Made by a program: the position numbers and the translations under genes | Shown here: positions 7,852 to 37,195 of the stretch, piece by piece | Numbering within the stretch: the first letter of the stretch is position 1 | How the letters are laid out: every line of letters begins with the position of its first letter | Notes under the pieces: model-generated | Told to the model about the DNA's origin: nothing | Seen by the model: the letters and a program-made list of their open reading frames with translations, nothing else | Databases searched by the model: none | NCBI GenBank assembly: GCA_014360945.1 | Contig: JACIWM010000001.1 | Coordinates: forward strand, 1 to 38,285 | Length of the DNA: 38,285 nt | Direction of reading: 5' to 3' | From: Candidatus Bipolaricaulota bacterium | GTDB taxonomy: Bacteria; Bipolaricaulota; Bipolaricaulia; Bipolaricaulales; Bipolaricaulaceae

Positions 7852-8156
7852 AGCTTTATCTCCACGTCAATTCCCGCGGGGAGCTCCACATCCATGAGGG
7901 CGTTGATGGTGGCGGCCGTGGGCTCCTTTATGTCCAAAAGCCGTTTGTGGATCTTGAGCTCGAAGTGTTCCATGGACTTTTTGTCCACATGGGGCGAGCG
8001 CAAAACGGTATAGAGGTGGCGCTCCGTGGGAAGCGGAATGGGCCCACTGATCTTCGCCCGCGTGGGCTTCACCGCCTCCACGATCTTGCGCACCGCCTCG
8101 TCCACAAGTTCGTGGTCGTAGCCTTTTATGCGAATCCGGATCTTTTCCCTAGCCAT
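7848..8156 (-). CDS. rpsJ: 30S ribosomal protein S10
   Basis: 102-aa ORF with [15 protein letters not shown]......IV......[10 protein letters not shown]......[15 protein letters not shown]...HKRL.DI. The ATG at 8156 overlaps the end of fusA by 8 nt. Confidence 0.96.
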
Positions 8157-10233
8157 AACCTCGGCTCCTCAGCACCTCCCGGGCCAATTCTTCCGGCACC
8201 ACCTCGTACCGGGCCACCCGAAGGGTATGAACAGCACGTCCCTGCGTTAGGGAACGTAACTGCGTAGCGTACCCGAAAGTCTCCACCACGGGGAGGGTGC
8301 ACCGGATGATGTCCACCGTTCCCCGGGTTTGGATAGCTCGGATCTCGCCCCTTCGGCGGCCCAGATCCGAAACGACCTCGCCCAGGTACTCGCTGGGCGT
8401 GATTATATCGCCTTCGGCCACGGGCTCCAGGAGAAGAACCCCGCCCTCCTCCAAGGCGCGACGCAGCGCCTGCGTTCCCGCCGCTTCAAATGCCACATCC
8501 GTGGAGGTGAGGGGGTTGAATTTCGCTTCAAGGAGGATGGCCCGCACGTCCGTGACAGGAAAACCGCCCACGGGACTCGCGGCTAAGGCCCCTTGGATTC
8601 CTCGCCGCACTGCCTCCGCAAATTCCTTTGGGAGAATTTCCTCCGGCACCTCGGAATGAAATTCAAACCCGCCGCCGCGGGAAAGGGGCTCAAACCGCAC
8701 CCGGATCCAGGCATATTGGGGTTTCCCGCCCACGGTCTTTTCGAACTCCTCCACGATCTCCACGGGCTTGGCCAAGGTCTCCTTGTACACCACAATGGGC
8801 TTTCCCACGCGATGGGGGACCTTGAATTCCTCCCGCACTCGCCGAAGAAGCACTTCCAAATGAAGTTCGCCCATCCCGCCCACCAAAAGCTGCCCGGTGG
8901 TCTCGTCGTCCTGGACTCGGAAGGTCGGGTCCTCTTGGGCGAGCTTCATGAGGGCCTCGCGCAAGGCCGGCTCCTCTTTTTCCGACCGGGGCTCCACGGC
9001 CAAAAACACCACCGGCTCCGGAAATGCAATGGGTTCGTAGAGGATGGGATGGTCCGGATCGCACAGGGTGTTTCCGGTGTAAACTGGGGCAGAAAGGATC
9101 AGGCCCACAATGTCCCCGGCATAGGCCACGTCCATCTGTTCGCGTTTGTTGGCATGCAGGCGAAAAATGCGGGTCACCCGGGCCTTGGTCCCCTGGGTGG
9201 CGTTAAGGACCACTTGGCCCTCTTTGAGGGTTCCCGAATAGATCCGGGTGTACAAAAGCCGGTCCGCATAGGGATCGGTGAACACCTTGAACACCAACGC
9301 GGAGAAAGGTTCGTCGGGGAAAGGTTTTCGTAGCTCCTCGGTTTTTCCGTCCAGGGCGGTTCCCCGGGCGGGAGGGATGTCCAGCGGGGAGGGAAGGAAA
9401 TCCACCACGGCATCCATCACCGGCTGGACTCCGATCTTCTCGTAAGCTGAGCCGCCGAAGACCGGGACCCAAAGATGGTGGAGGGTGGCCTCCCGGATGA
9501 CCTTCACCGCCAATTCCAAGGGGATTTCCTCACCCTCCAAATATCGGACGGCGATCTCGTCCGAGACCTCGCTTAAAGTTTCAAAGAGCTTCTCTCGCCA
9601 GGCCCGGGCTTCCTCCTCCACCTCTTTCGGCACGGGAAGATACTGAAAATTCCGACCTAAACTTTCCGGGTCCCAGCGGATCGCGGAAAACCGGAGAAGA
9701 TCGATTATGCCGAGAAGGTTTCCCTCCCCATCGCGCCAGGGGTAGACGAGGGGCAGAGCTACGGCGCCCAATTTCTCCTCGATATCGGAAAAAGCGCGGA
9801 CGAAGTCGGCCTCTATGCGATCGAGTTTGTTGATGAAAGCGATGCGGGGAACGCGATACCGGTCAGCCTGACGCCAGACGGTCTCGGATTGGGATTCCAC
9901 CCCTTCCACGCCGGAGAAGACCACGATGGCTCCGTCCAAAGCGCGGAGGCTGCGCTCCACCTCCACAGTGAAGTCCACATGGCCTGGGGTGTCCACGATG
10001 TTGATCTGATGCCCGCGCCAAAAGACGGTGGTGGCGGCGGCGGTGATGGTGATTCCCCGCTCCCGCTCCTGGTCCATCCAGTCCATTTCCGTCGTGCCCT
10101 CATGGACCTCCCCCATCTTGTGAATCTTTCCCGTAAAAAAAAGAATGCGCTCAGTGAGGGTGGTTTTTCCGGCGTCGATGTGGGCGATGATCCCGATGTT
10201 TCGGACTTTACATATGTCGTAGGGGTCGGCCAT
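8149..10233 (-). CDS. fusA: Elongation factor G family GTPase (divergent domain IV tip)
   Basis: 694-aa ORF with G1 [10 protein letters not shown]2 RGITI, G3 DTPGH, G4 NKLD and the C-terminal [15 protein letters not shown]. It sits in the str-operon position after rpsG. See findings for the non-canonical domain IV loops. Confidence 0.9.
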
Positions 10234-11116: not shown

Positions 11117-14100
11117 TTAATTATTTGCGGGCTTGGACTCAACGGACTCGTCGCGGGGGAAGCCCGTGCCCACCGGGATCTTCTTCCCCACCATGAGGCA
11201 GGCCTTGAGGCTCTCGAGGTAGTCCTCTTCCCCGCGCAGCGCCGCGTCGGAGAGGACCTTGGTGGTGCGTTCAAACGAGGCCGCCGCCAGCCAGGATTTG
11301 CGCACCAACGCCACCCGGGAGATCCTGAGGAGCTCCCGCTCGCCTTGCGGCAAGCGATATTCAGAGATACGTACAGTACGAGGCTCTCCATGGACCTCCA
11401 CCCGTATTTGCCGCACGCCCAAGGCCACCATGCGCTCCAAAAGGTCGCGGGTCAGGGTCTCGCCGGCCTCGGCCACCGTCACCCCGCCTCGGATCACGGG
11501 CGCAAGGAGCTTCGCTCCTACCAACTCCTCCCGGGCGGCCCGGATCCGCTCGTTCTCCTGGCTTAAGCGCTCCACCTCCCGCTGGAAGATCTCCAGGGGC
11601 ACGATGTCGTTGAGGAGGAAATCGGACTCTCCGGGGTCGATGATGCGCACATGGTTCAGGATTTGACGCAGTACGACCTCGAAGTGCTTGTCGTTGATAT
11701 CCACGCCCTGGGTCTTGTACACGCGCTGAAGCTCGGTGAGAAGGTATTCGAAGGCCTTGCGAACTCCGGCCACTTCCATGAGGTACTGGGGCGGGACGAC
11801 CCCTTTGGAGATGGGATCGCCGCGCTCCACCTTGTCGCCCTCCCGGACGATAGCGACTTCCGTGCACTCCACCCGGGCTCGGAAGCGGAAGCGCACATGA
11901 CATAGGTCCTCGTCGCCGCGGATCTCCTCCACCACCACGGTGTCGGAGAGGGCGGGAAGGCCAAGGCGCAGGACTTCTTGGCCGGCTCGGACCGGGCCGC
12001 CATGTTCCACCCGCGGCTCGATCCCCTCGGGAACGGGCACGATCAATCCCCGGCTGGACCGGTGCCGAATGGCCAAGGACCCGGGGGCAAGGAGAACCCG
12101 TCCGGAAGTTTCCGCCTGGAGGGTAAGGGGGCGGGAACGGGTGGTGAGTTTCGTCCCCTCCGGGACCTCCTCCCCGTTCTTCACCAGGATTTGCGCTCCG
12201 TACGGAACCTCGTAGGAATAGGTGCGGCCGTCCTGGCCGTGGAGGAGGATGTACCGATGCTTTTTGTCCTCCGTGATTTCTACCCGTCCGGCCACCTCCG
12301 CCACCACCGCCTCCTGGTGGAATTCCTCCGTGAGGCTTGCGCCCTCCTCCACTTCCTCACCGTGGGCCACCTTGGCCTTCACCCCTTGGGGCAGGGTGTA
12401 GAACCGGTCCAAATCATCGTCGAGGATGGCCAAGTATTTGCGCCCATCCTCGGTGAAGAAGAAGGCGCGGCCGTCCACCGGGCTTTTCAGGGAGAAGAGC
12501 TTGGAGCTATCCACCTCCTCACCCTCGGCCACCTGGAGGAGGGCGGCGGGCACGACCACCGTGCGGGGATCGGACTCGATCTCCACGATGTCTTGGCCGG
12601 TGCGGGCCGTCTCAAGTTTCACCACGCGCCCGGTCAAGGGTGCCACCGCGGCATGGGGAGCTTTCGTGGTTTTACGGGCTTCAAAAAGCTCTTCCGCTCT
12701 AGGAAGGCCCTGGGTGATGTCCACTCCGGCCACACCACCGGTGTGGAAGGTTCTCATAGTGAGCTGGGTTCCCGGCTCGCCGATGGATTGGGCAGCGATG
12801 ATTCCCACGGCCGTGCCCTTCTCCACGAGCCGGTGGAACGCGAGATCCATGCCGTAGCAAAGCTGGCAGACGCCGCCCGCTGTCTGGCAGGTCACAGGCG
12901 AGCGCACAATGAACCTCGGCCGCACCCGGATCTTCTCCACCCCCGCCGCCCGCAGCTCTTGGACAAGCTCCGGGGTGAGGGCCTCGTTTTCTCGGACAAT
13001 GACGTAGCCCTTTTCGGGGTGGTACACGTCCCGTACGGACTTGGCCAAATGCGCGCGCTCCTCCACCTTAGGCGCGGAAAGGTCCAAATCCACCTCCAGC
13101 CGGCCCACCTTCTCCGCAGTGACCCGATCGATCATCGTTCCTGCAGGGACCAGGACCTCGCCGGTGGCCGGATGGTAGATGGGCTCGGCCGTGACCCGGC
13201 CATAGAGCCGTTCGGGAATGTCCTCCATGATTTCCCCTTTGGGGGCGAAATAGAGGGGATCGATCTCCACCCCTTGCTTAGTTCCGCAATCGTATTCCTT
13301 GACAATCACGTCCACGCAGGCGTCCACCAATCGCCGGGTGAGGTACCCAGCGGTGGCCGTGCGCAGGGCCGTATCGGCCGTGCCTTTACGCGCGCCGTGG
13401 GTGGAGATGAAGTACTCGAAGATGGAAAGGCCCTCCCGGAAGTTGGAGATCACCGGCCACTCGATAACTCGCCCTTGCGGATCGGCCATGGGGCCACGCA
13501 TTCCCGCCAGTTGTTTCACTTGGCCGGATGAGCCCCGGGCACCGGAGGCCACAATCCCATACACGGGGTTGAACGGGTTGCGCGCGAGGTTCTGCATGGT
13601 GGCCTTCTCCACCCGGTTCACTGTCTCCCGCCACACCTGGGTCACGGCCTGATACCGTTGCTCCGCGGTGCACAGGCCCCGCTGGTACATGTGTTGGATG
13701 CGGTCCACCTTCTCTTGGGCTTCCTGGACGATCTCCCACTTTTCCGGCGGGATTTCGCAGTCGGGGACGGAGATGGTGAGACCGGAGAGGGTGGCGAACC
13801 TGAACCCAAGCTCCTTGAGCTGGTCCAAAACCTCCGCGGTCTTCTCCCAGCCGTGGCGAAGATAGCACTCCTCGATCTTGCGGCGAGTGCGGCGCGAGTC
13901 CCAAACAAGGTTGTAGTCCCGAAGATCAGGGGGAAGCACCTGGTTTAGAAGGGCTCGGCCAAGGGTCGTCTCCACAAGCTTCCCGTCGATCCTGATCTTC
14001 ACCGGCGCGTGAAGATCGAGGTGTCCCAGTTCCCAAGCTTTAAGGGCCTCCTCAATGGAGCGGAAGGCTTTCCCTTTGCCCTTTCCCTGGGGATTGAGGA

Positions 14101-16045
14101 TGGTGAGGTAGTAAAAGCCGTAGATCTGGTCCTGGGTGGGGGTGGCCAAGGGCCGGCCATGCGCCGGGGAGAGGATGTTCTTCGCGGAAAGCATGATCTC
14201 TTTGGCCTCCCACACGGCATCCTTGGAGAGAGGAAGGTGTACGGCCATCTGATCCCCGTCGAAGTCGGCGTTGTAGGGCGGACATACATGGGGATGGATT
14301 TGGATGGCATCCCCGTCCACGAGGACCGGCTCAAAGGCTTGGATGGAAAGGCGATGTAGGGTGGGGGCGCGGTTGAGGAGGACCGGATATTCCTTCACCA
14401 GCTTTTCCAAAGCATCCCAAACCTCGGGAAGCTCGCCGGCCAGGGCCCGGTTTTTCACCTCGTCGTAGTCGGCATAAGGAAGGCCCTCCACCTGGGCGAG
14501 GATGAAGGGTTTGAAAAGCTCCAGGGCCATCTTCTTGGGGATGCCGCACTGATGAAGCTTGAGCTTGGGGTTGACCACGATCACGGCCCGGCCGGAGTAG
14601 TCCACGCGGCGGCCCAAAAGATGCCGGCGTAGCCTCCCCTGCTTCCCTTGGATGCGCTCGGAAAGGCTCTTGAGGGGCCGACCATCTCGACCCTTGATGG
14701 GGTTGTCCTTCTTCTCGTTGTGGATGAGGGCATCCACCGCTTCCTGGAGCATGCGCCGCTCGTTGCGGAGGATGATCTCCGGCGCGCCCATTTCCATGAG
14801 CTTCTTTAGCCGGTTATTGCGGTTGATGATGCGCCGATAAAGGTCGTTGAGGTCGGTGGTGGCGAATTTCCCGCCCTCCAGTTGGATCATGGGCCGCAGA
14901 GCCGGGGGAAGGACGGGGATGACCTCGAGAACCATGTCCTGGGGCCTATTTCCGGAGCGGCGAAGCTGCTCCACCACTTCCAGCCGGTGCAGGATCCGCC
15001 GGCGGTCGGTCTGGCTCACCGTGCGGTCCAGCTCCTCCCAGAGCTCCTCGGCCAGGGCATCCAAATCCAGCGCGGCCAAAAGTTTCTTGATCCCCTCCGC
15101 GCCGGTGGCCGCCTCAAATCCGTCCGGATAGGCTCGCTGATAGGCCCGCACCTCCAGGGAGGAGAGCATCTGCCCAACTTTTAGAGGGACGTTCTCCGCC
15201 ACCCGGACCACAAGGTGGGCGAGGTTGTCCACCACCTCCACCACCGGATGGCCCTCCACCCCCTCGTAGCGGGCGCGGAGCATATCGAACATCGTTTGCG
15301 AACAAATTTCCTTGACCGGCTGCTCGCAGAGAAGCTCCCCTTCCGCCACCTCATCCCCATCCTCCACGAAAAGCTCGGCGTCCAGGGTCACGGGATATTC
15401 ATGGTGGCCGACCACCAAAACCCTGAAGGTCTCACCGTTTTGGAGCTTTCTCTCCTCGAACCGGACCCGTCCGGCCTCCTCGGCCACGATGCGCGGGCTT
15501 TCCGTGATCAAAAACGCCCGCTCCGCCTGGAAGGTGAAGACGCTCTGGAGGATGCGGAGCTCTGTGGCGTATAAGGTCTCCCCGGGTTTTATTTTTGGAG
15601 AGGCCGACTGGGTCACGATGTACAGCTCCTCCCTGGCCGTTTCCGTCTCGTAATACGCGATGCGCCTAAGATCCCGGCGTTTTATGCCCAAGAGGCGGGA
15701 AAGGGGGCTGGCCACGCCTTTCAGATACCAGAAGTGCACCACCGGGCTGGCCAGACGGATATGGCCCATGTTCACCCGGCGCACCGAGGAGTCCGTCACC
15801 AACACCCCGCACTTGTCACAGGTTATGCCCTCGTAGCGTTTCCCTCGATACTTTCCGCAGGCACACTCGTAGTCGTTCTCCGGACCAAATATCTCCTCCG
15901 CATAAAGCCCGCCCCGCTCGGGCTTATGCGTGCGGTAGTTGATGGTCTCGGAGTTCGTCACCTCCCCTTTGGACCAGGAAAGGATTTCCTCCGGGGAGGC
16001 CAAACCGATACGAATCCTAGCGATATCGTCACCAGAGATGGGCAC
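11117..16045 (-). CDS. rpoC: DNA-directed RNA polymerase subunit beta' (1642 aa, with lineage-specific insertions)
   Basis: Signatures present: the N-terminal zinc motif CACGKY...CDKCG, the catalytic [14 protein letters not shown] (nt 14252-14272), the trigger-loop region [11 protein letters not shown], and the C-terminal [18 protein letters not shown] start at 16045. Confidence 0.97.
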
Positions 16046-31270: not shown

Positions 31271-32962
31271 TTACTGAGTTCGCCAGTCCACCACGATTCC
31301 TTCGACTAAAAGCTTCCCGCCCTCGTGCACCACCTCCTTTCCCGCGGGAATGAACACCACCACACGCGCGGAATCCGGCGGGATAAGGAGCTTAGCCACT
31401 CCGGACACGTCACGGGCCACAAAAGTTTTGCTCACCGTGTCATAAAGATCTTTAGCCTCCAAACCCACTTCGATCTCGATCTCTTTTTCCTCCGCATAGG
31501 GGTTATAGTAAAGATATGTAGGATAAGCAGGAAGACAGAAGTAGTCAGTGGCTAAAAGATCGATGGAAAGAATGCCCGGAACATTCGTGGGGGAGATAAG
31601 AGCGCCGAAAACCCCGGCGTGGGAGCCAGCATACAACGCGAAATCGGTCTTTGCCCATTTGTTCCGTACAGCATCGCCTGTAGCATAAGGACTGACGATA
31701 TCCCAATCGATGATTCCCCAGCGACGTAAGCCCTCGTAGGGAATGACACCTTTTGAGGTCTCAGCCCAGAAGGCAGAAGACTGGTGGTTGGCCGGATGGT
31801 AGGGAGCATAGAAGAGACGGGCATTTACGGCGGCATTAAGCAACCACTTGCCAATGGCGCGGGCGAAACGAGGGTCATACCGCACCAGCGGCACAAGGGG
31901 CTCAGCCCAAACAAAAGTGTTCATGGCGAAGGCATAGCCTTCTTGGTCGGTCAGGCTGCCGATTAACCCGTCAACTCGTTGTCCGTCCCACTCACCGCTG
32001 ATCATTCCCCAGCCCGGTCGAGCATCTGAAACGCCAAAGCACCATTTCACAAAAGTCCACACGTCATAGTTTCGTCCCAGTTCGGCGTTGATCCTGGCGG
32101 CTACCAACGCACCATACGGAAGAAGAAGCTCATAAAGAGGGTTGTAGTCTTTGGTGGCCAAATCCTGAAGATAAGCAAGCGCCCATTCAGCGGCGATGAG
32201 GAAACGGGGATCTTTGAATGTGACATAAGCCATGTACAAAAGCCAAGCCACTCCAGCGGCAGCATCAGGCTCCCTCCACCAGCGAAATACCGGCTGCATC
32301 TTTGCGAAATCAAAAGCCTGCCAAGAGAAATCGGGCAGTCCATCCTTCCCACCGAGGACATAAGTAGCTTCATACCAGCGCTCGGCCACGATGCGCATGA
32401 TCTCCATCATGCTTAAATCATCTGGGCCTCTTTTTGTCTGCGCTAGCTCGGGGTATTGATTGCAGAGGATGAAAAAAAGAATGCTTGGGTGAATCTCATA
32501 CCAAAAGCTATTACCGCTGACAGTATTTGGCTGGTTTAAAACCAAATTTTGGCCGTTAGCCCGATTAAAGAATTCCTTTTGCATGGTGACGAGATCCAGA
32601 CCATACCAATGGCTCATGTCCAAACCCACAAGGGTTCCACTGCGCACTGCTGCAATTACGTTTATTGCTTCTTGTGCTCCATCCTGACCGTATCGCCGGT
32701 CACCCACGTACGCAGGCAAGGCCAAATGATCCAAACCAAAGTTAACGCCGCGGCGGTCCCACCACGCTAGAGGAAGCAATTCTCCTTGAGCGGAGAGGTC
32801 AAACACAAAAGCGGTGTATTGACGGGCTACTTCCTTCCAATTTCGCAGTTCGAAATTCGGAGGAAGAGAGGGAACGACCTCGAGGCTCGGGATCACAAGT
32901 TGTTGAGCATAAACTCCAAAAGTCAAAGACACCAAAAATACAGCGAGCAAACGCCTTCCCAT
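31271..32962 (-). CDS. Secreted protein of unknown function (possible glycan-active enzyme)
   Basis: 563-aa protein from ATG 32962, preceded by AGGAGG. Signal peptide MGRRLLAVFLVSLTFGVYAQQ. Trp/Tyr-rich, with no family signature that I recognise. It is the second gene of the LacI-controlled glycan locus. Confidence 0.6.
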   Translation of the reverse strand: MGRRLLAVFLVSLTFGVYAQQLVIPSLEVVPSLPPNFELRNWKEVARQYTAFVFDLSAQGELLPLAWWDRRGVNFGLDHLALPAYVGDRRYGQDGAQEAINVIAAVRSGTLVGLDMSHWYGLDLVTMQKEFFNRANGQNLVLNQPNTVSGNSFWYEIHPSILFFILCNQYPELAQTKRGPDDLSMMEIMRIVAERWYEATYVLGGKDGLPDFSWQAFDFAKMQPVFRWWREPDAAAGVAWLLYMAYVTFKDPRFLIAAEWALAYLQDLATKDYNPLYELLLPYGALVAARINAELGRNYDVWTFVKWCFGVSDARPGWGMISGEWDGQRVDGLIGSLTDQEGYAFAMNTFVWAEPLVPLVRYDPRFARAIGKWLLNAAVNARLFYAPYHPANHQSSAFWAETSKGVIPYEGLRRWGIIDWDIVSPYATGDAVRNKWAKTDFALYAGSHAGVFGALISPTNVPGILSIDLLATDYFCLPAYPTYLYYNPYAEEKEIEIEVGLEAKDLYDTVSKTFVARDVSGVAKLLIPPDSARVVVFIPAGKEVVHEGGKLLVEGIVVDWRTQ

Positions 32963-33017
32963 TAGTCCTCCTGCAAAATAAGAGGGGAGGGGAATATCCC
33001 CTCCCCCTTTTCGGGCA

Positions 33018-33575
33018 TCATTCCGTACGGTAGACGATGCGGATGCCATCTACAGAGACAGGGCCGCCCACGCCCCAAAACCAAAGCCTGATAGCAATTA
33101 TCGGGGTATTAGGCAACGCCCGAATGACACCGACGGGAGCGAATTCTTTGATTCCTTCTGCAAGGTTGATCTCTACATCACCGGAGAGGTTATTGTCCCC
33201 AATGAGATAAGTACCCCAAGCCTCAACAGGCGTAAAGACATCGGGTTTAAGGCCGCGGAGATGAGCTTTGAGAGTCCACTTTTCTTTAGGTTGAACGTTT
33301 AAGAGAATAATGACCGGATTTTTAGAGACATCCAAGAGAAGCCAGGGACTTATTACACCTCCGCCCCAGGGCTCACCGAAGGTTACACCCACCACGGCCT
33401 TCCCGTCGATTAGGCTCACCGTTCCGGCGCCGAGGAACTCACCGCTTTCCGGGTCAAGATACGGCTGCCAAGCAGCGGCGATCATTTCAGGAGTAAATTC
33501 ATAGATGACTACATCAGCCCCCAACGCTAACACCGCTCCCACCGTCACCGCTACTGCTACCCACCACTTGGACAT
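33018..33575 (-). CDS. Small secreted or membrane-anchored protein of unknown function
   Basis: 185-aa ORF with an N-terminal hydrophobic anchor (MSKWWVAVAVTVGAVLALGA). GAGGAGGTG precedes the ATG. It is the first gene after the consensus promoter. Confidence 0.55.
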   Translation of the reverse strand: MSKWWVAVAVTVGAVLALGADVVIYEFTPEMIAAAWQPYLDPESGEFLGAGTVSLIDGKAVVGVTFGEPWGGGVISPWLLLDVSKNPVIILLNVQPKEKWTLKAHLRGLKPDVFTPVEAWGTYLIGDNNLSGDVEINLAEGIKEFAPVGVIRALPNTPIIAIRLWFWGVGGPVSVDGIRIVYRTE

Positions 33576-34785: not shown

Positions 34786-35475
34786 TTACCTAAAGATTAA
34801 AAGAGCTTCCTCAAGACCAGAAAGGTCGGGAATGGAAGCATCTGGAAAATGGAGTGAAGAGGGAGGGCGCTGATAGGAATAAGGGCCCAAAAGGACGCGC
34901 ACGGTCTTCATTCCCAAAAGCCGCGCCGGAAAAACGTCGTGATCCAAACGATCGCCCACCATCACTGCCTCCTCCGGTTCCACCCCGAGGCTATCCAGGA
35001 TAATGCGGAAAAAGAGAGGGCGGGGCTTGGCTACACCCATCCCTTCCGAAACCTCCCGCCATTGAAAATAACGAAGAAGACCAGCTTCTTCCAAAATTTC
35101 TAGGGCCGAAACCGGTTGGTTTCCGGCGAGGGCAAGGATATAGCGCTCGGCGAGTTTCGGTATCGCCTCTTTTGCCTCGCTTCGCACAAAAACCCCGGGA
35201 AGATCTTGCAAAAAGGTGCGTTGGCTTTCTCGAAAGGCCTCACGGATCCGACGAAACCAGGGTAGATCTGGGCGCACAAACTGCCAAAGCGCCGAAAGCC
35301 AAGGATTTTCCTCACAACGGGCTATTTCCTCATCAATTTTGGCCCAAAACGCCTCCTTCGTGACCCTGATTCCTTCGCGTTCCAACTCCAGCACGAGGAG
35401 TTCCGTCCAACGCCGATACTCGGCATCCTCGTTGAAAACAGGGCCGCCAAGATCAAGGAGAATCGCGCGGATCAT
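34786..35475 (-). CDS. HAD-superfamily hydrolase (motif I variant DLGG)
   Basis: 229-aa ORF with motif I AILLDLGGPV, an alpha-helical cap region, and motif IV MVGDRLDHDV. The ATG overlaps the upstream stop (ATGA). Confidence 0.8.
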   Translation of the reverse strand: MIRAILLDLGGPVFNEDAEYRRWTELLVLELEREGIRVTKEAFWAKIDEEIARCEENPWLSALWQFVRPDLPWFRRIREAFRESQRTFLQDLPGVFVRSEAKEAIPKLAERYILALAGNQPVSALEILEEAGLLRYFQWREVSEGMGVAKPRPLFFRIILDSLGVEPEEAVMVGDRLDHDVFPARLLGMKTVRVLLGPYSYQRPPSSLHFPDASIPDLSGLEEALLIFR

Positions 35476-36626
35476 TTGATCCCCATCTTCTTTGTCGCGA
35501 TTTTTTCGGGAAGCATGTAGCCGATGGATTCCTCAGCCGTCACCCCGCGGAGGGCCGCAAGAATACAAACTAAGGCATGCCCAATGGCTAAATGTGCTGT
35601 TTGAATGCGCGTGCTTGAAGGCCCTTCGGGCTTGGCATTGCTTTTGATAACAATATCCGCGTACTTCCCTAGCGGGGTGTCTTTGTTTTCGGTGATGGCC
35701 ACGGTCAAAGCGCCTTTCTCGCGGCAAAGCCGGGCCGCCTCATATACAAAGCCGGTTCCGCCGGAAGCAGATATTGCGACGAGAACGTCTTTGGGTTCCA
35801 CACAGGTGGCGATGAACCGGGCAAGACCCCCTTCCTCTTCCCCCGTTCCTTTGGCGAAGGACACAGGAAGGGCCTGGGCCATGTTGTTAGTGATGCAAAG
35901 GCAAGGGACCCCAGTCTCATAGCATTGACCGGCGATTTCCTCTGCCACCAAAGCCGAGGCTCCAGCGCCGGTGGTTACGATCTTTCCACCTTTTTTCAGC
36001 CGCTCATGAATGGCTTCGAGCGCTTTGAGAAACCCCTCCTTGGCCGTGGGGATGGAGGAGAGGATTCCTTCAGCTTCCAGGCGCAAAGCTTTTTCGAACA
36101 TTTCCGCGGGACCTGTGCAACCGGTGAAATCGTAGCCCACCATAAAAGGACGATTAACGTCGATCACTTGTCCTACCGTGTCGATTAAAACCCGGCCGTT
36201 CCACGAATGTTCCTCGAACTCCAAAGTTGTGCCGGGAAGATCCCCGATCTTCAAATTTTTACCGGTAAGTTTCGCAATAAGGCTCGTTTTCCCGGAGTTG
36301 AAGATCCCAAGGACCACGATGCGCGAGCCTTCTGGGAAGCGTTTTTCTATTCCGGCCACAACCGCAGGAACGTTTTCTCCGGTGAGAAGCGACATGACCG
36401 GAAATTTCATGCCGAGCTCGTCTTGAACGCGGCGCACTTCCTCCTGAGATACGAGGTCGAGCTTATTGCCCACCAAAAGAGCGGGGAGATTCGCGTTTTC
36501 CACGGCCTCAAGGAAAAGGCGCATCGTAGGAATTTGGGGATCATAGAGGTTCACAAGGATGACCGCCCCGGTGGCTCCACAGGTTTCAAATGGAGTAACC
36601 ATTTTCTTCGTGACCCTTTTGCTCAT
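35472..36626 (-). CDS. Circularly permuted GTPase domain fused to a SIS (phosphosugar-binding) domain
   Basis: 384-aa ORF. The motif order is G4 NKLD (aa 54-57), G1 GIFNSGKT (aa 106-113), G2 PGTT, G3 DTVG (aa 149-152). The C-terminal half has GKIVTTGAGAS, VLVAISASGGTG and GPSSTRIQTAHLAIGHAL, typical of SIS domains. Confidence 0.75.
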   Translation of the reverse strand: MSKRVTKKMVTPFETCGATGAVILVNLYDPQIPTMRLFLEAVENANLPALLVGNKLDLVSQEEVRRVQDELGMKFPVMSLLTGENVPAVVAGIEKRFPEGSRIVVLGIFNSGKTSLIAKLTGKNLKIGDLPGTTLEFEEHSWNGRVLIDTVGQVIDVNRPFMVGYDFTGCTGPAEMFEKALRLEAEGILSSIPTAKEGFLKALEAIHERLKKGGKIVTTGAGASALVAEEIAGQCYETGVPCLCITNNMAQALPVSFAKGTGEEEGGLARFIATCVEPKDVLVAISASGGTGFVYEAARLCREKGALTVAITENKDTPLGKYADIVIKSNAKPEGPSSTRIQTAHLAIGHALVCILAALRGVTAEESIGYMLPEKIATKKMGIK

Positions 36627-36709: not shown

Positions 36710-37195
36710 TCACCCCAGCTTGTACCCGATGCGGCGGAGGAATTCCTTCCGCTCTGCTTGCTCCTTTTCGCCTTCCACTCCTTTGGTTTTTACCCCGTCG
36801 ATCACACCCAAAATTCCTCGCCCTTGCTCGGTTTCGGCCACGATGACCTCCACGGGATTGGCGGTGGCACAGAATATTCTGCAAACTTCCGGCACCATTT
36901 TTATTGCGTTTAGGACGTTGATGGGGTACATCCCGCGCATAAAAATGAGGAAGATATGGCCGCAACCAAGGTTGAGGGCGTTTTTCTTAGCAAGCTCGGT
37001 GAGCTCGGGATCGGTGCCGGACCACCGCACTAAAGCCGGCCCAGAAGACTCGCAGAAGGCCAGCCCAAATTTCGCCCCGGGAACGTTCGTCACCATGGCC
37101 TCATGCAGGTCCTCCACGGTTTTGATGAAATGGGCCTGCCCCAAAATCATGTTCACGTCATCCGGCTTTTCGATTTTCACCACCTTGATCTCCAT
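36710..37195 (-). CDS. COG1839/PF04008 ('adenosine-specific kinase') family protein
   Basis: 161-aa ORF. NMILGQAHFIKTVEDLHEA, PGAKFGLAFCESSGP.LVR, PINVLNAIK.VPEV and ATANPVEVIV match my recollection of this small, poorly characterised family. Not verified by search. Confidence 0.6.
   Translation of the reverse strand: MEIKVVKIEKPDDVNMILGQAHFIKTVEDLHEAMVTNVPGAKFGLAFCESSGPALVRWSGTDPELTELAKKNALNLGCGHIFLIFMRGMYPINVLNAIKMVPEVCRIFCATANPVEVIVAETEQGRGILGVIDGVKTKGVEGEKEQAERKEFLRRIGYKLG

Follow-up and report, generated by a model that had tools for sequence, protein, structure and literature searches.

Circularly permuted GTPases (cpGTPases) of the YlqF/YawG-RsgA group (i.e., RbgA/YlqF, YqeH, RsgA/YjeQ, Nog2/Nug2, Lsg1, and MTG1) have a common fold and the motif order G4-G5-G1-G2-G3, and append an RNA- or ribosome-binding domain (ANTAR-like, OB/Zn-finger) straight after switch II. 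It has been proposed that a domain attached at this point moves with the nucleotide state (PMC3597669). SIS domains, in turn, are found in the sedoheptulose-7-phosphate isomerase GmhA, in the N-acetylmuramic acid (MurNAc)-6-phosphate etherase MurQ and in MurR/RpiR, the ligands of the latter two being N-acetyl-hexosamine 6-phosphates, and in GlmS. The glucosamine 6-phosphate (GlcN6P) made by GlmS is regarded as the universal and essential entry to peptidoglycan, lipopolysaccharide, S-layer glycan, and other envelope sugars, and this step is a drug target. The glmS ribozyme has been described as a repressor of glmS under plentiful GlcN6P (PMC5473149, PMC2258182). Here we analyzed a gene that fuses a cpGTPase to a SIS domain, located on the minus strand at positions 35472-36626 of a 38,285-nucleotide stretch of DNA from Candidatus Bipolaricaulota bacterium (GenBank assembly GCA_014360945.1, contig JACIWM010000001.1, positions 1 to 38,285), hereafter the window. 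Judging from the surroundings of its relatives, the encoded protein very probably belongs to the pathway that supplies GlcN6P and UDP-N-acetylglucosamine (UDP-GlcNAc).

Both domains and the pathway are already known. What appears to be undescribed in the literature that we searched is the domain combination, a Ras-like Gln in a cpGTPase, a metabolic effector domain on such a GTPase, and ribozyme control of a gene other than glmS. The accessible literature has the ribozyme only as a regulator of glmS, and a recurrent monocistronic target other than glmS widens its regulon. A second protein under a GlcN6P feedback RNA, sometimes replacing glmS, implies a hitherto unknown enzyme or control layer, and its carriers are lineages that are hard to study (the candidate phyla radiation (CPR), DPANN, Chloroflexota, and Bipolaricaulota). 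The ribozyme link also suggests what an orphan protein may do. As for the question why some GTPases are circularly permuted, a small-molecule-binding, enzyme-like domain placed on switch II could allow nucleotide-driven domain coupling to be assayed free of the ribosome.

The glmS ribozyme and hexosamine genes beside the fusion gene

The glmS ribozyme (RF00234) was detected above the Rfam gathering score in 21 genome loci, always on the same strand as the fusion gene and ending 91-175 nucleotides before its start, and nowhere else in the approximately 840 kb scanned with Rfam. An nhmmer profile built from the Rfam instances recovered all of them and added two more (L032 and L039), which brought the ribozyme to 23 of the 50 genome loci. 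Of 80 further loci, fetched independently from metagenomes, the same profile placed it 102-175 nucleotides upstream of the gene in 22. The association reaches several deep branches of the protein tree. Among the ribozyme loci, glmS follows right behind the fusion gene in 12 from genomes and 6 from metagenomes. Conversely, at least 17 loci, a few of them possibly duplicates of each other, carry the ribozyme with no glmS in the 2-10 kb of downstream sequence (L023, L026, L027, L030, L034, L039, L043, L094, L106, L108, L113, L115, L122, L123, L129, L140, and L141), and the ribozyme of the first of these matches the full model with its conserved core intact. Since the next gene in these loci usually lies on the opposite strand and varies between loci, the ribozyme would there control the fusion gene alone. 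Two further loci (L120, Ga0208047_1000113; L121, Ga0208828_1000925) display the reversed order: on the strand of the fusion gene, glmS ends 421 nucleotides upstream of it, and neither locus gave a ribozyme match.

To describe the gene context, open reading frames (ORFs) around 54 loci were clustered and representatives annotated, covering up to 10 kb on each side of the fusion gene. Among Chloroflexota, a canonical glmS (791-811 bits, with the N-terminal CGIVGY and the C-terminal NLAKSVTVE) begins 23-51 nucleotides past it. A metagenome-assembled genome (MAG) of Aenigmatarchaeota (L053) encodes an archaeal glmU (above cut-off), the fusion gene, and a GlmM-like mutase in this order with overlapping stops, and the same arrangement of glmU-like, fusion, and glmM-like genes, again with overlapping stops, was found in L124. 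GlmM-like mutases begin 17-20 nucleotides after the gene in four loci (L059, L103, L130, and L134), and in methanotrophs a bona fide glmM (570 bits) adjoins it. Other neighbors extend the amino-sugar theme: a TviB-like UDP-GlcNAc dehydrogenase adjoins the gene in L015, L016, and L019, while L055 presents NeuB, the fusion gene (here an intein-bearing copy), GT2, a GlmM-like mutase, a GNAT acetyltransferase, and an NTP-transferase. One CPR locus (L048) has three PMT_2 genes, the fusion gene, GT2, and GT4. Proteobacterial loci yielded no conserved partner beyond glmM or an NDP-sugar dehydrogenase. Thus, all three enzymes of UDP-GlcNAc synthesis are recurrent neighbors of the gene in unrelated lineages.

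The parallel with GlmS is close at the level of the locus: both have the same GlcN6P-responsive ribozyme in the 5' leader, often share an operon, and fill the first-step slot in glmM/glmU operons. Since GlcN6P triggers the ribozyme, which works as an OFF switch, the fusion protein should be made when GlcN6P is scarce, and its output would thus be expected to raise either GlcN6P supply or the flux into nucleotide amino-sugars. It is this OFF switch, together with the linkage to glmS, glmM, and glmU, on which the placement of the protein in the supply pathway is based. The first-pass annotation of the window, made from the sequence alone, had suggested a GTPase switch linked to a phosphosugar, an idea that is consistent with this context. 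The ribozyme and the glmS, glmM, and glmU neighbors further point to the hexosamine-6-phosphate node.

Architecture and conserved sites of the protein

The minus strand of 35472-36626 reads as one complete ORF of 384 residues plus stop, supported by the ORF list, Pfam matches, and full-length homologues, and preceded by a Shine-Dalgarno-like AAGGGGGG ahead of its ATG. A plus-strand ORF at the same positions was ruled out because its translation is riddled with stops. The first-pass annotation had thus delimited the gene correctly, and only the strand had to be corrected to minus, which is also the strand of every window feature that is given below with its positions. Its reading of an N-terminal permuted GTPase held as well: all of the motifs that it quoted are present in the order G4-G1-G2-G3, and profile and fold searches agree. 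So did its reading of the C-terminal half as a SIS domain, for which Pfam, NCBIfam, PDB profile, and fold searches single out GmhA and MurQ as the closest relatives. The phosphate-binding Ser/Thr loop, whose integrity it had proposed to check, proved intact. The proposed likeness to YlqF, RbgA, RsgA, and YqeH stood for motif order and fold, whereas the Ras-like Gln of G3 is unlike known cpGTPases. As for the remark that no characterized protein combines these domains, none emerged from searches of full-text literature (with McCown 2011 and 2012 outside the search), from the PDB, where no entry spans both domains, or from NCBIfam, where no model attains its cut-off.

The cpGTPase domain spans residues 1-152 (36171-36626) in the order G4-G5-G1-G2-G3. 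It opens with a conserved segment (residues 1-19; 36570-36626) in which R4, K7, K8, and F13 are at least 98% conserved over 116 sequences, and the model of the domain predicts a helix at residues 3-15 ahead of the permuted G domain. By analogy with the CR1 region of RbgA (PMC3597669), we infer that this segment may have a role in GTP hydrolysis. The guanine-specificity motif G4 (NKLD, residues 54-57; 36456-36467) has invariant N54, K55, and D57, and G5 corresponds to S79. These are followed by the P-loop G1 (GIFNSGKT, residues 107-114; 36285-36308) with the invariant Asn110, by G2/switch I (PGTT, residues 131-134; 36225-36236), assigned from motif position and conservation, and by G3/switch II (DTVGQ, residues 149-153; 36168-36182), in which Gln153 is invariant among the 116 sequences. 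A P-loop Asn is typical of cation-dependent TRAFAC GTPases such as MnmE, FeoB, and Era, and is shared with the YlqF/YawG-RsgA proteins; Asn110 is presumably the same signature of cation dependence.

Pfam assigned this half to MMR_HSR1 (41.5 bits, cut-off 21.9), above the curated cut-off, and RsgA_GTPase aligned collinearly over residues 21-130 at 26.0 bits, below its cut-off of 30. The best NCBIfam matches were EngB, small_GTP, and YqeH, none of them near its cut-off (29 bits against 297 for the YqeH model TIGR03597). A profile of the domain was collinear from G4 through G3 with YlqF (3cnl), YqeH (3ec1/3h2y), Nug2, and RbgA (1puj). Structure prediction with AlphaFold gave a model with a predicted local distance difference test (pLDDT) of 80 and a predicted template modelling score (pTM) of 0.77, and the top 24 matches of this predicted structure in a Foldseek search of the PDB were all cpGTPases (TMq 0.50-0.69). 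The 24 comprised Nog2/GNL2, RsgA/YjeQ, Lsg1, MTG1, and further chains from assembly intermediates, and RbgA came at rank 28. These results confirmed a circularly permuted GTPase in the N-terminal half, its order and fold being those of YlqF, RbgA, RsgA, and YqeH.

The group of hydrophobic-amino-acid-substituted (HAS) GTPases, which includes RbgA, YqeH, Era, FeoB, and MnmE, has a hydrophobic residue in place of the Gln after DxxG (PMC3597669). While the YlqF/YawG-RsgA cpGTPases are HAS-GTPases, the G3 of the fusion protein reads DxxGQ, and the invariance of this Ras-like Gln153 indicates that it is not one of them. The two further differ in that the fusion protein lacks ribosomal gene context, has a very narrow distribution, and appends a metabolite-binding SIS domain where the others append one that binds RNA or the ribosome. 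An origin of the permutation separate from theirs, from a Der/EngA-type tandem GTPase, could not be distinguished from common descent with YlqF and YqeH, as these two score just as well in a single stretch (~40 bits). The profile of the permuted domain does span the GD1/GD2 junction of Der (5dn8) as one stretch at 32.8 bits, covering the second half of GD1 and the first half of GD2, and this alignment illustrates how duplication followed by truncation could yield a permuted domain.

As in the YlqF/YawG-RsgA proteins, the second domain is attached straight after switch II through a conserved linker (residues 153-172; 36111-36170). This segment, delimited by conservation and modelled with low confidence, is rich in invariant positions, six of its residues being nearly so (Q153, I155, D156, P160, M162, and D166). 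Because of the permutation, switch II leads directly into the linker and the first SIS helix, and the nucleotide state could thereby gate the SIS domain.

The SIS domain itself covers residues 173-370 (35517-36110) and scored above the curated cut-offs of Pfam SIS_2 (52.4 bits, cut-off 27) and SIS (51.5 bits, cut-off 25). A profile search of the PDB placed it between GmhA (~53 bits) and MurQ (~51 bits), and the C-terminal half of the full-length model (pLDDT 76) matched MurQ, MurR, GmhA, KdsD, and other SIS structures. The NCBIfam matches of this half were led by MurQ, HxlB, and GmhA, none near its cut-off. The three stretches on which the first assignment was based lie at residues 214-224 (GKIVTTGAGAS), 281-292 (VLVAISASGGTG), and 335-352 (GPSSTRIQTAHLAIGHAL). 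The first SIS loop (TGAGAS, residues 219-224; 35955-35972) corresponds to GNGGS in GmhA and GAGTS in MurQ, and the phosphate-binding loop (ISASGGTG, residues 285-292; 35751-35774) to STSGNS in GmhA and SQSGET in GlmS. TGAGAS and SASGGT (286-291) are invariant, and both loops align with those of GmhA, MurQ, and GlmS.

Further invariant residues around these loops were placed by HMMER alignments. The helix AEEIAGQCYET (residues 228-238; 35913-35945) contains E230, Q234, and E237, and the catalytic Glu residues E83 of MurQ and E68 of Burkholderia pseudomallei GmhA fall on Q234 of this helix. E230 is found one helical turn before, at the position of GmhA His64; the alignment with Vibrio cholerae GmhA instead sets E230 on the catalytic Glu, so that the register is ambiguous by one turn. 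In KGTGEEE (residues 259-265; 35832-35852), the invariant E263 aligns with MurQ (4lzj and 1nri), where its counterpart, E114 of the GAED motif, is the second catalytic Glu. An invariant loop, AKPEGPSS (residues 331-338; 35613-35636), is followed by the helix IQTAHLAIGH (residues 341-350; 35577-35606), which aligns with the IQExHxxxxH helix of GmhA. The invariant Q342, H345, and H350 match Q172, H175, and H180 of Escherichia coli GmhA, where this helix is catalytic and Zn-binding. As judged from these alignments, the SIS site is clearly preserved and specialized.

The C-terminal tail MLPEKIATKKMGIK (residues 371-384; 35475-35516) is disordered in the models, and its KKMGIK is essentially invariant. 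Homology of this tail to the C-tail of GlmS that holds K603 was considered but found no support, as only the spacing of the Lys from the C-terminus is the same and hhalign maps the SIS domain on the first GlmS SIS subdomain only. With that subdomain, including its SQSGET-type phosphate loop, the SIS domain is homologous (hhalign probability 93%). The glutaminase domain of GlmS is missing (no GATase match) and the GTPase stands in its place, and the glmS model TIGR01135 gave 27 bits against a cut-off of 418.

Differences from the two closest SIS enzymes are equally marked. Like the fusion protein, GmhA has a single SIS domain of similar size with matching GxGxS and SxSGxT loops and the C-terminal IQxxHxxxxH helix. 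Its catalytic and metal set (H61/E65/Q172/H180 in E. coli, H64/E68/Q175/H183 in B. pseudomallei) is matched by Q342 and H350, and the match of the N-terminal pair depends on the template. Scores were far under the GmhA equivalog TIGR00441 (41 bits against 209) and the PRK models (32-40 against 265-320), and an extra N-terminal GTPase, the KKMGIK tail, and a hexosamine rather than heptose context set the protein apart. MurQ was the best NCBIfam match (64 bits), and MurQ (4s12, 4lzj, and 1nri) and MurR (7en7) were the top fold matches, with an N-terminal helical lead-in in common. MurQ models were nevertheless missed (48-64 bits, cut-offs 168-302), its catalytic E83 aligns with Gln234, its C-terminal domain is absent, and the family of the fusion protein also occurs in archaea, which lack murein.

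Two copies of the gene carry independent inteins, established from the sequences, verified junctions, and Pfam Intein_splicing. One (P0123, L061 6001-8319) is inserted between N110 and S111 of the P-loop, equivalent to window positions 36294-36299, and harbors a Phage_endo_I-like endonuclease. The other (P0122, L055 1267-3477) is inserted between P336 and S337 of the AKPEGPSS loop, equivalent to 35616-35621. Inteins typically lodge in catalytic motifs of important proteins, so these insertion points mark both sites as functionally critical. Together with the 25% of residues that are near-invariant across bacteria and archaea, they argue that both activities are indispensable.

Possible functions in hexosamine supply

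The best overall explanation for these observations, which we advance tentatively as falling somewhat short of probable, is that GTP gates the SIS protein and that its activity increases the supply of GlcN6P. In a more specific form, whose standing we consider possible and no higher, the SIS domain would be catalytic and act at the entry of the pathway, with the permuted GTPase as its built-in gate. The GmhA/MurQ-like domain would bind a hexose- or hexosamine-6-phosphate, i.e., fructose 6-phosphate (Fru6P) or GlcN6P, and would itself catalyze an entry step, either auxiliary or alternative, from which GlmM receives GlcN6P, the simplest chemistry being a glutamine-independent amination and isomerization of Fru6P. 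The GTPase would stay outside the chemistry as a switch whose GTP/GDP state, possibly with (p)ppGpp or K+, opens or closes the SIS site or an oligomer interface. The architecture, the intact motifs, the extreme conservation, the ribozyme, and the linkage to glmS, glmM, and glmU are observed in this scheme, and ligand identity, catalysis, gating direction, and oligomeric state are what we infer. With a similar degree of caution, the family might be an unrecognized component of amino-sugar biosynthesis, a GTP-gated SIS protein that either stands in for glmS behind the ribozyme and makes GlcN6P available without glutamine or is required to activate this supply. It might also be the first cpGTPase whose switch drives a metabolic domain rather than one that binds ribosomes.

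Two observations favor an enzyme-like role. The gene holds the first-step slot, both where reduced genomes carry biosynthetic operons and within polysaccharide clusters. In addition, many invariant acid, base, and metal-type residues are kept at the SIS site, where E230, Q234, E263, Q342, H345, and H350 align with catalytic positions of GmhA or MurQ. Several points weigh against it. To our knowledge, GTP has no role in hexosamine chemistry, and every characterized cpGTPase that we know of acts on ribosomes. The complete GlmS encoded in the same operon of Chloroflexota means that there the protein is not simply a replacement for it, and Gln at the catalytic Glu position of MurQ and GmhA suits a binding-only domain as well as altered catalysis. 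The hhalign alignment covers only GlmS residues ~195-438, and the fusion protein is without the second SIS subdomain and E488, H504, and K603, which in GlmS lie outside the aligned subdomain (PMC9272926). The window copy and the whole Bipolaricaulota clade have neither a glmS ribozyme nor a hexosamine gene nearby; the function of the window protein is therefore assigned by orthology, through 48-67% identity to members linked to the ribozyme or glmM and identical motifs. The taxonomy of the MAGs is uncertain, and loci are partly duplicated between collections, which inflates raw counts. No report of the gene behind a glmS ribozyme was found in the accessible literature, McCown 2011 being outside that search. 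Finally, all functional readings of the protein are drawn from sequence, gene context, and predicted structure.

A regulatory switch is a doubtful alternative, though nearly as likely as the enzyme. Here the SIS domain would sense Fru6P, GlcN6P, or intermediates of the UDP-GlcNAc pathway and the GTPase would signal to a partner such as GlmS or GlmM, so that GlcN6P production is switched on once its pool has run down, by analogy a protein-level counterpart of RapZ or GlmR/YvcJ. In E. coli, RapZ senses GlcN6P and combines a kinase-fold N-domain with a phosphofructokinase (PFK)-like C-domain (PMC7073468, PMC5737377), and in Bacillus the NTPase YvcJ has GlmR as its partner, GlmR in turn acting on GlmS (PMC7525490). 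These systems are a precedent for pairing a P-loop NTPase with a sugar-phosphate-binding module in GlcN6P homeostasis. The likeness is one of logic only, as neither system is homologous to the fusion protein, RapZ relies on small RNAs and RNase E, and GlmR is a protein separate from YvcJ. A complete glmS co-transcribed with the gene behind one ribozyme, the adjoining glmM, the substitution of Q234 for the catalytic Glu, the fact that GTPases are switches, and the proposed movement of cpGTPase-appended domains with nucleotide state (PMC3597669) all suit such a sensor. It fits less well with the slot for a precursor enzyme that the gene takes inside polysaccharide and nucleotide-sugar operons of reduced CPR and DPANN genomes, or with the many invariant charged residues around the SIS site, the GmhA-type Q/H/H helix among them. 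Moreover, an activator of GlmS would be expected beside glmS more often than beside glmM.

It is unlikely that the protein isomerizes another sugar phosphate or cleaves an ether in one, its GTPase being an appended regulator, as would be the case for a GmhA-like heptose-7-phosphate isomerase, a mannose-6-phosphate isomerase, or a MurQ-like etherase feeding surface-glycan synthesis, in which case the ribozyme would reflect salvage into GlcN6P or shared operon control. GmhA and MurQ are indeed the best sequence and fold matches, the neighbors include sugar epimerases, NeuB, GT2, GT4, and PMT_2 glycosyltransferases, and NDP-sugar dehydrogenases, and the window gene lies near a LacI/ABC transporter/GH130 locus and a HAD phosphatase. 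However, this synteny is confined to a few close relatives, scores are far under the GmhA, MurQ, and KpsF equivalog cut-offs (e.g., 41 against 209 bits for gmhA), and the adjoining mutases score best as GlmM-type. That a ribozyme specific for GlcN6P exerts monocistronic control in no fewer than 17 loci speaks for a direct connection to GlcN6P.

More improbable still is a cpGTPase linked to ribosome biogenesis or translation, with the SIS domain as an RNA/phosphate anchor or as a checkpoint coupling ribosome assembly to the supply of envelope precursors. The structural neighbors of the G domain are all ribosome-assembly factors (Nog2, Lsg1, RsgA, RbgA, and MTG1), one CPR lineage has the gene between lepA/divIC and rplJ-rplL, and the window contains ribosomal-protein, EF-G, and rpoC genes, though more than 25 kb from it. 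Nevertheless, no ribosomal-gene linkage is conserved across loci, the fold attached to the GTPase is one that binds metabolites, its phosphosugar loops being intact, rather than one that binds RNA, and a presence in ~50 of 185,000 species is unlike that of core assembly factors. A ribosomal role would also leave the ribozyme and the hexosamine context unexplained.

The remaining idea, that the gene is mobile, belongs to a phage or a defence system, or arose as an artefact of assembly or gene fusion and has no metabolic role of its own, is largely refuted and very improbable: a patchy spread over bacteria and archaea at no less than 48% identity (suggestive of horizontal transfer), the presence of the gene on one IMG/VR contig (L062) and on another contig (L061) where unknown ORFs abound beside methylase and GmrSD/HNH genes, and a truncated copy beside a transposase in Methylobacter sp. 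YRD-M1 stand against a fusion that is constant over hundreds of independent assemblies, a single occurrence in 2.9 million viral contigs with no phage record, a PADLOC result limited to a local 50-residue P-loop match to LeoA, and a PHROGs search of L061 that found no structural or viral hallmark and matched only SIS-only families with no function assigned there. A defence system as such was discarded on the negative PADLOC result.

Distribution of the family and surroundings of the gene in the window

The family is rare. A sequence search among 5.8 billion proteins retrieved 496 matches. The best 120 of these cover all or almost all of the protein, their identity being 54-99%, and the sources name them only "SIS domain-containing protein" or give concatenated GutQ/EngB labels. 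Among 1.84 billion representatives at 50% identity, a profile search found one full-length representative (653 bits), below which came only fragments and fusions and then a drop to ~78 bits. The phyletic spread of the fusion, which the first-pass annotation had left to be established, amounts to 50 of ~185,000 reference species, among them Bipolaricaulota, Chloroflexota/Anaerolineae, Patescibacteria (CPR), Methylobacter, Methylomicrobium, Gallionella, other Pseudomonadota, and DPANN archaea. The same architecture recurs in hundreds of homologues over their full length (48-99% identity), so the fusion is not an assembly artefact. The lowest identity to the window protein among 116 distinct full-length sequences was 48%, and 96 positions (25% of residues) were at least 98% identical over this set, mean column identity being 0.87 in the tail, 0.74 in the SIS domain, 0.73 in the linker, and 0.64 in the G domain. 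The protein tree departs from taxonomy, which indicates horizontal transfer.

Several forms deviate from the full-length fusion. Half-length relatives, either GTPase-only or SIS-only (P0126-P0131, P0136, and P0137), were found on contigs of ~1 kb. One of them (P0128, L063 37-1097) is a genuine, divergent SIS-only relative of 238 residues that starts at the linker, has a tail reading ...KAMGDK plus an extension, and is encoded by a gene translationally coupled to a PTPS/QueD-like gene rather than to a GTPase. In Methylobacter sp. YRD-M1 (CP091424, L001 6502-8924), a copy directly behind a DDE transposase is cut to 307 residues, lacking approximately the first 77 and with them G4, and glmM lies ~2 kb upstream; it is probably a pseudogene disrupted by an insertion sequence. 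The P-loop intein copy of L061 (JGI Ga0366840_1000681) is preceded by eleven same-strand ORFs without Pfam or PHROG match and followed by GT2, GT1, EcoRI-type methylase, GmrSD_N/HNH, HTH, methyltransferase, and B12-radical-SAM genes, and this contig may stem from a new virus, a mobile element, or the genome of a DPANN archaeon. Within the viral collection, a single contig (L062, IMG/VR UViG 3300028920_001945, 115.8 kb) has a relative, encoded at 8001-9188 with 47% identity and flanked by an NTP-transferase and a sugar epimerase. Phage records contained no copy of the gene, only KdsD-like SIS matches.

The window has a G+C content of 58%, and its closest relatives are Bipolaricaulota (Acetothermia) MAGs, one of which (L005) reaches 93% identity. 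Upstream of the fusion gene, at 36710-37195, lies an Adenosine_kin gene (PF04008, 259 bits), separated from it by 83 nucleotides, and the two may be co-transcribed. Throughout the Bipolaricaulota clade (the window, L007-9, L012, L013, L065-74, and L085), this neighbor is invariably found on the same strand 26-300 nucleotides upstream; this is the clade without the glmS ribozyme. No riboswitch or other Rfam element was detected near the window copy at E<=1, and promoter and terminator scans of the window performed no better than on shuffled sequences. Directly downstream, at 34786-35475, is a HAD-family hydrolase gene (Pfam and NCBIfam), whose ATG overlaps the TGA of the fusion gene (ATGA), suggesting translational coupling. 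It is kept only in the closest relatives (synteny in 4 loci).

Beyond the hydrolase, the window and its closest relatives share a sugar locus with a LacI regulator, an ABC transporter, and a GH130 mannoside phosphorylase. At 31271-33575 of the window, two ORFs of 592 and 185 residues without Pfam match, conserved in L005 and L009, are flanked by the LacI regulator and the sugar ABC transporter/GH130/GFO-IDH-MocA cluster, and may represent uncharacterized glycan-utilization proteins. Farther away, the rpoC product (11117-16045) is unusually long (1642 residues), with a large gap between the Rpb1 domain-5 segments that suggests a lineage-specific insertion.

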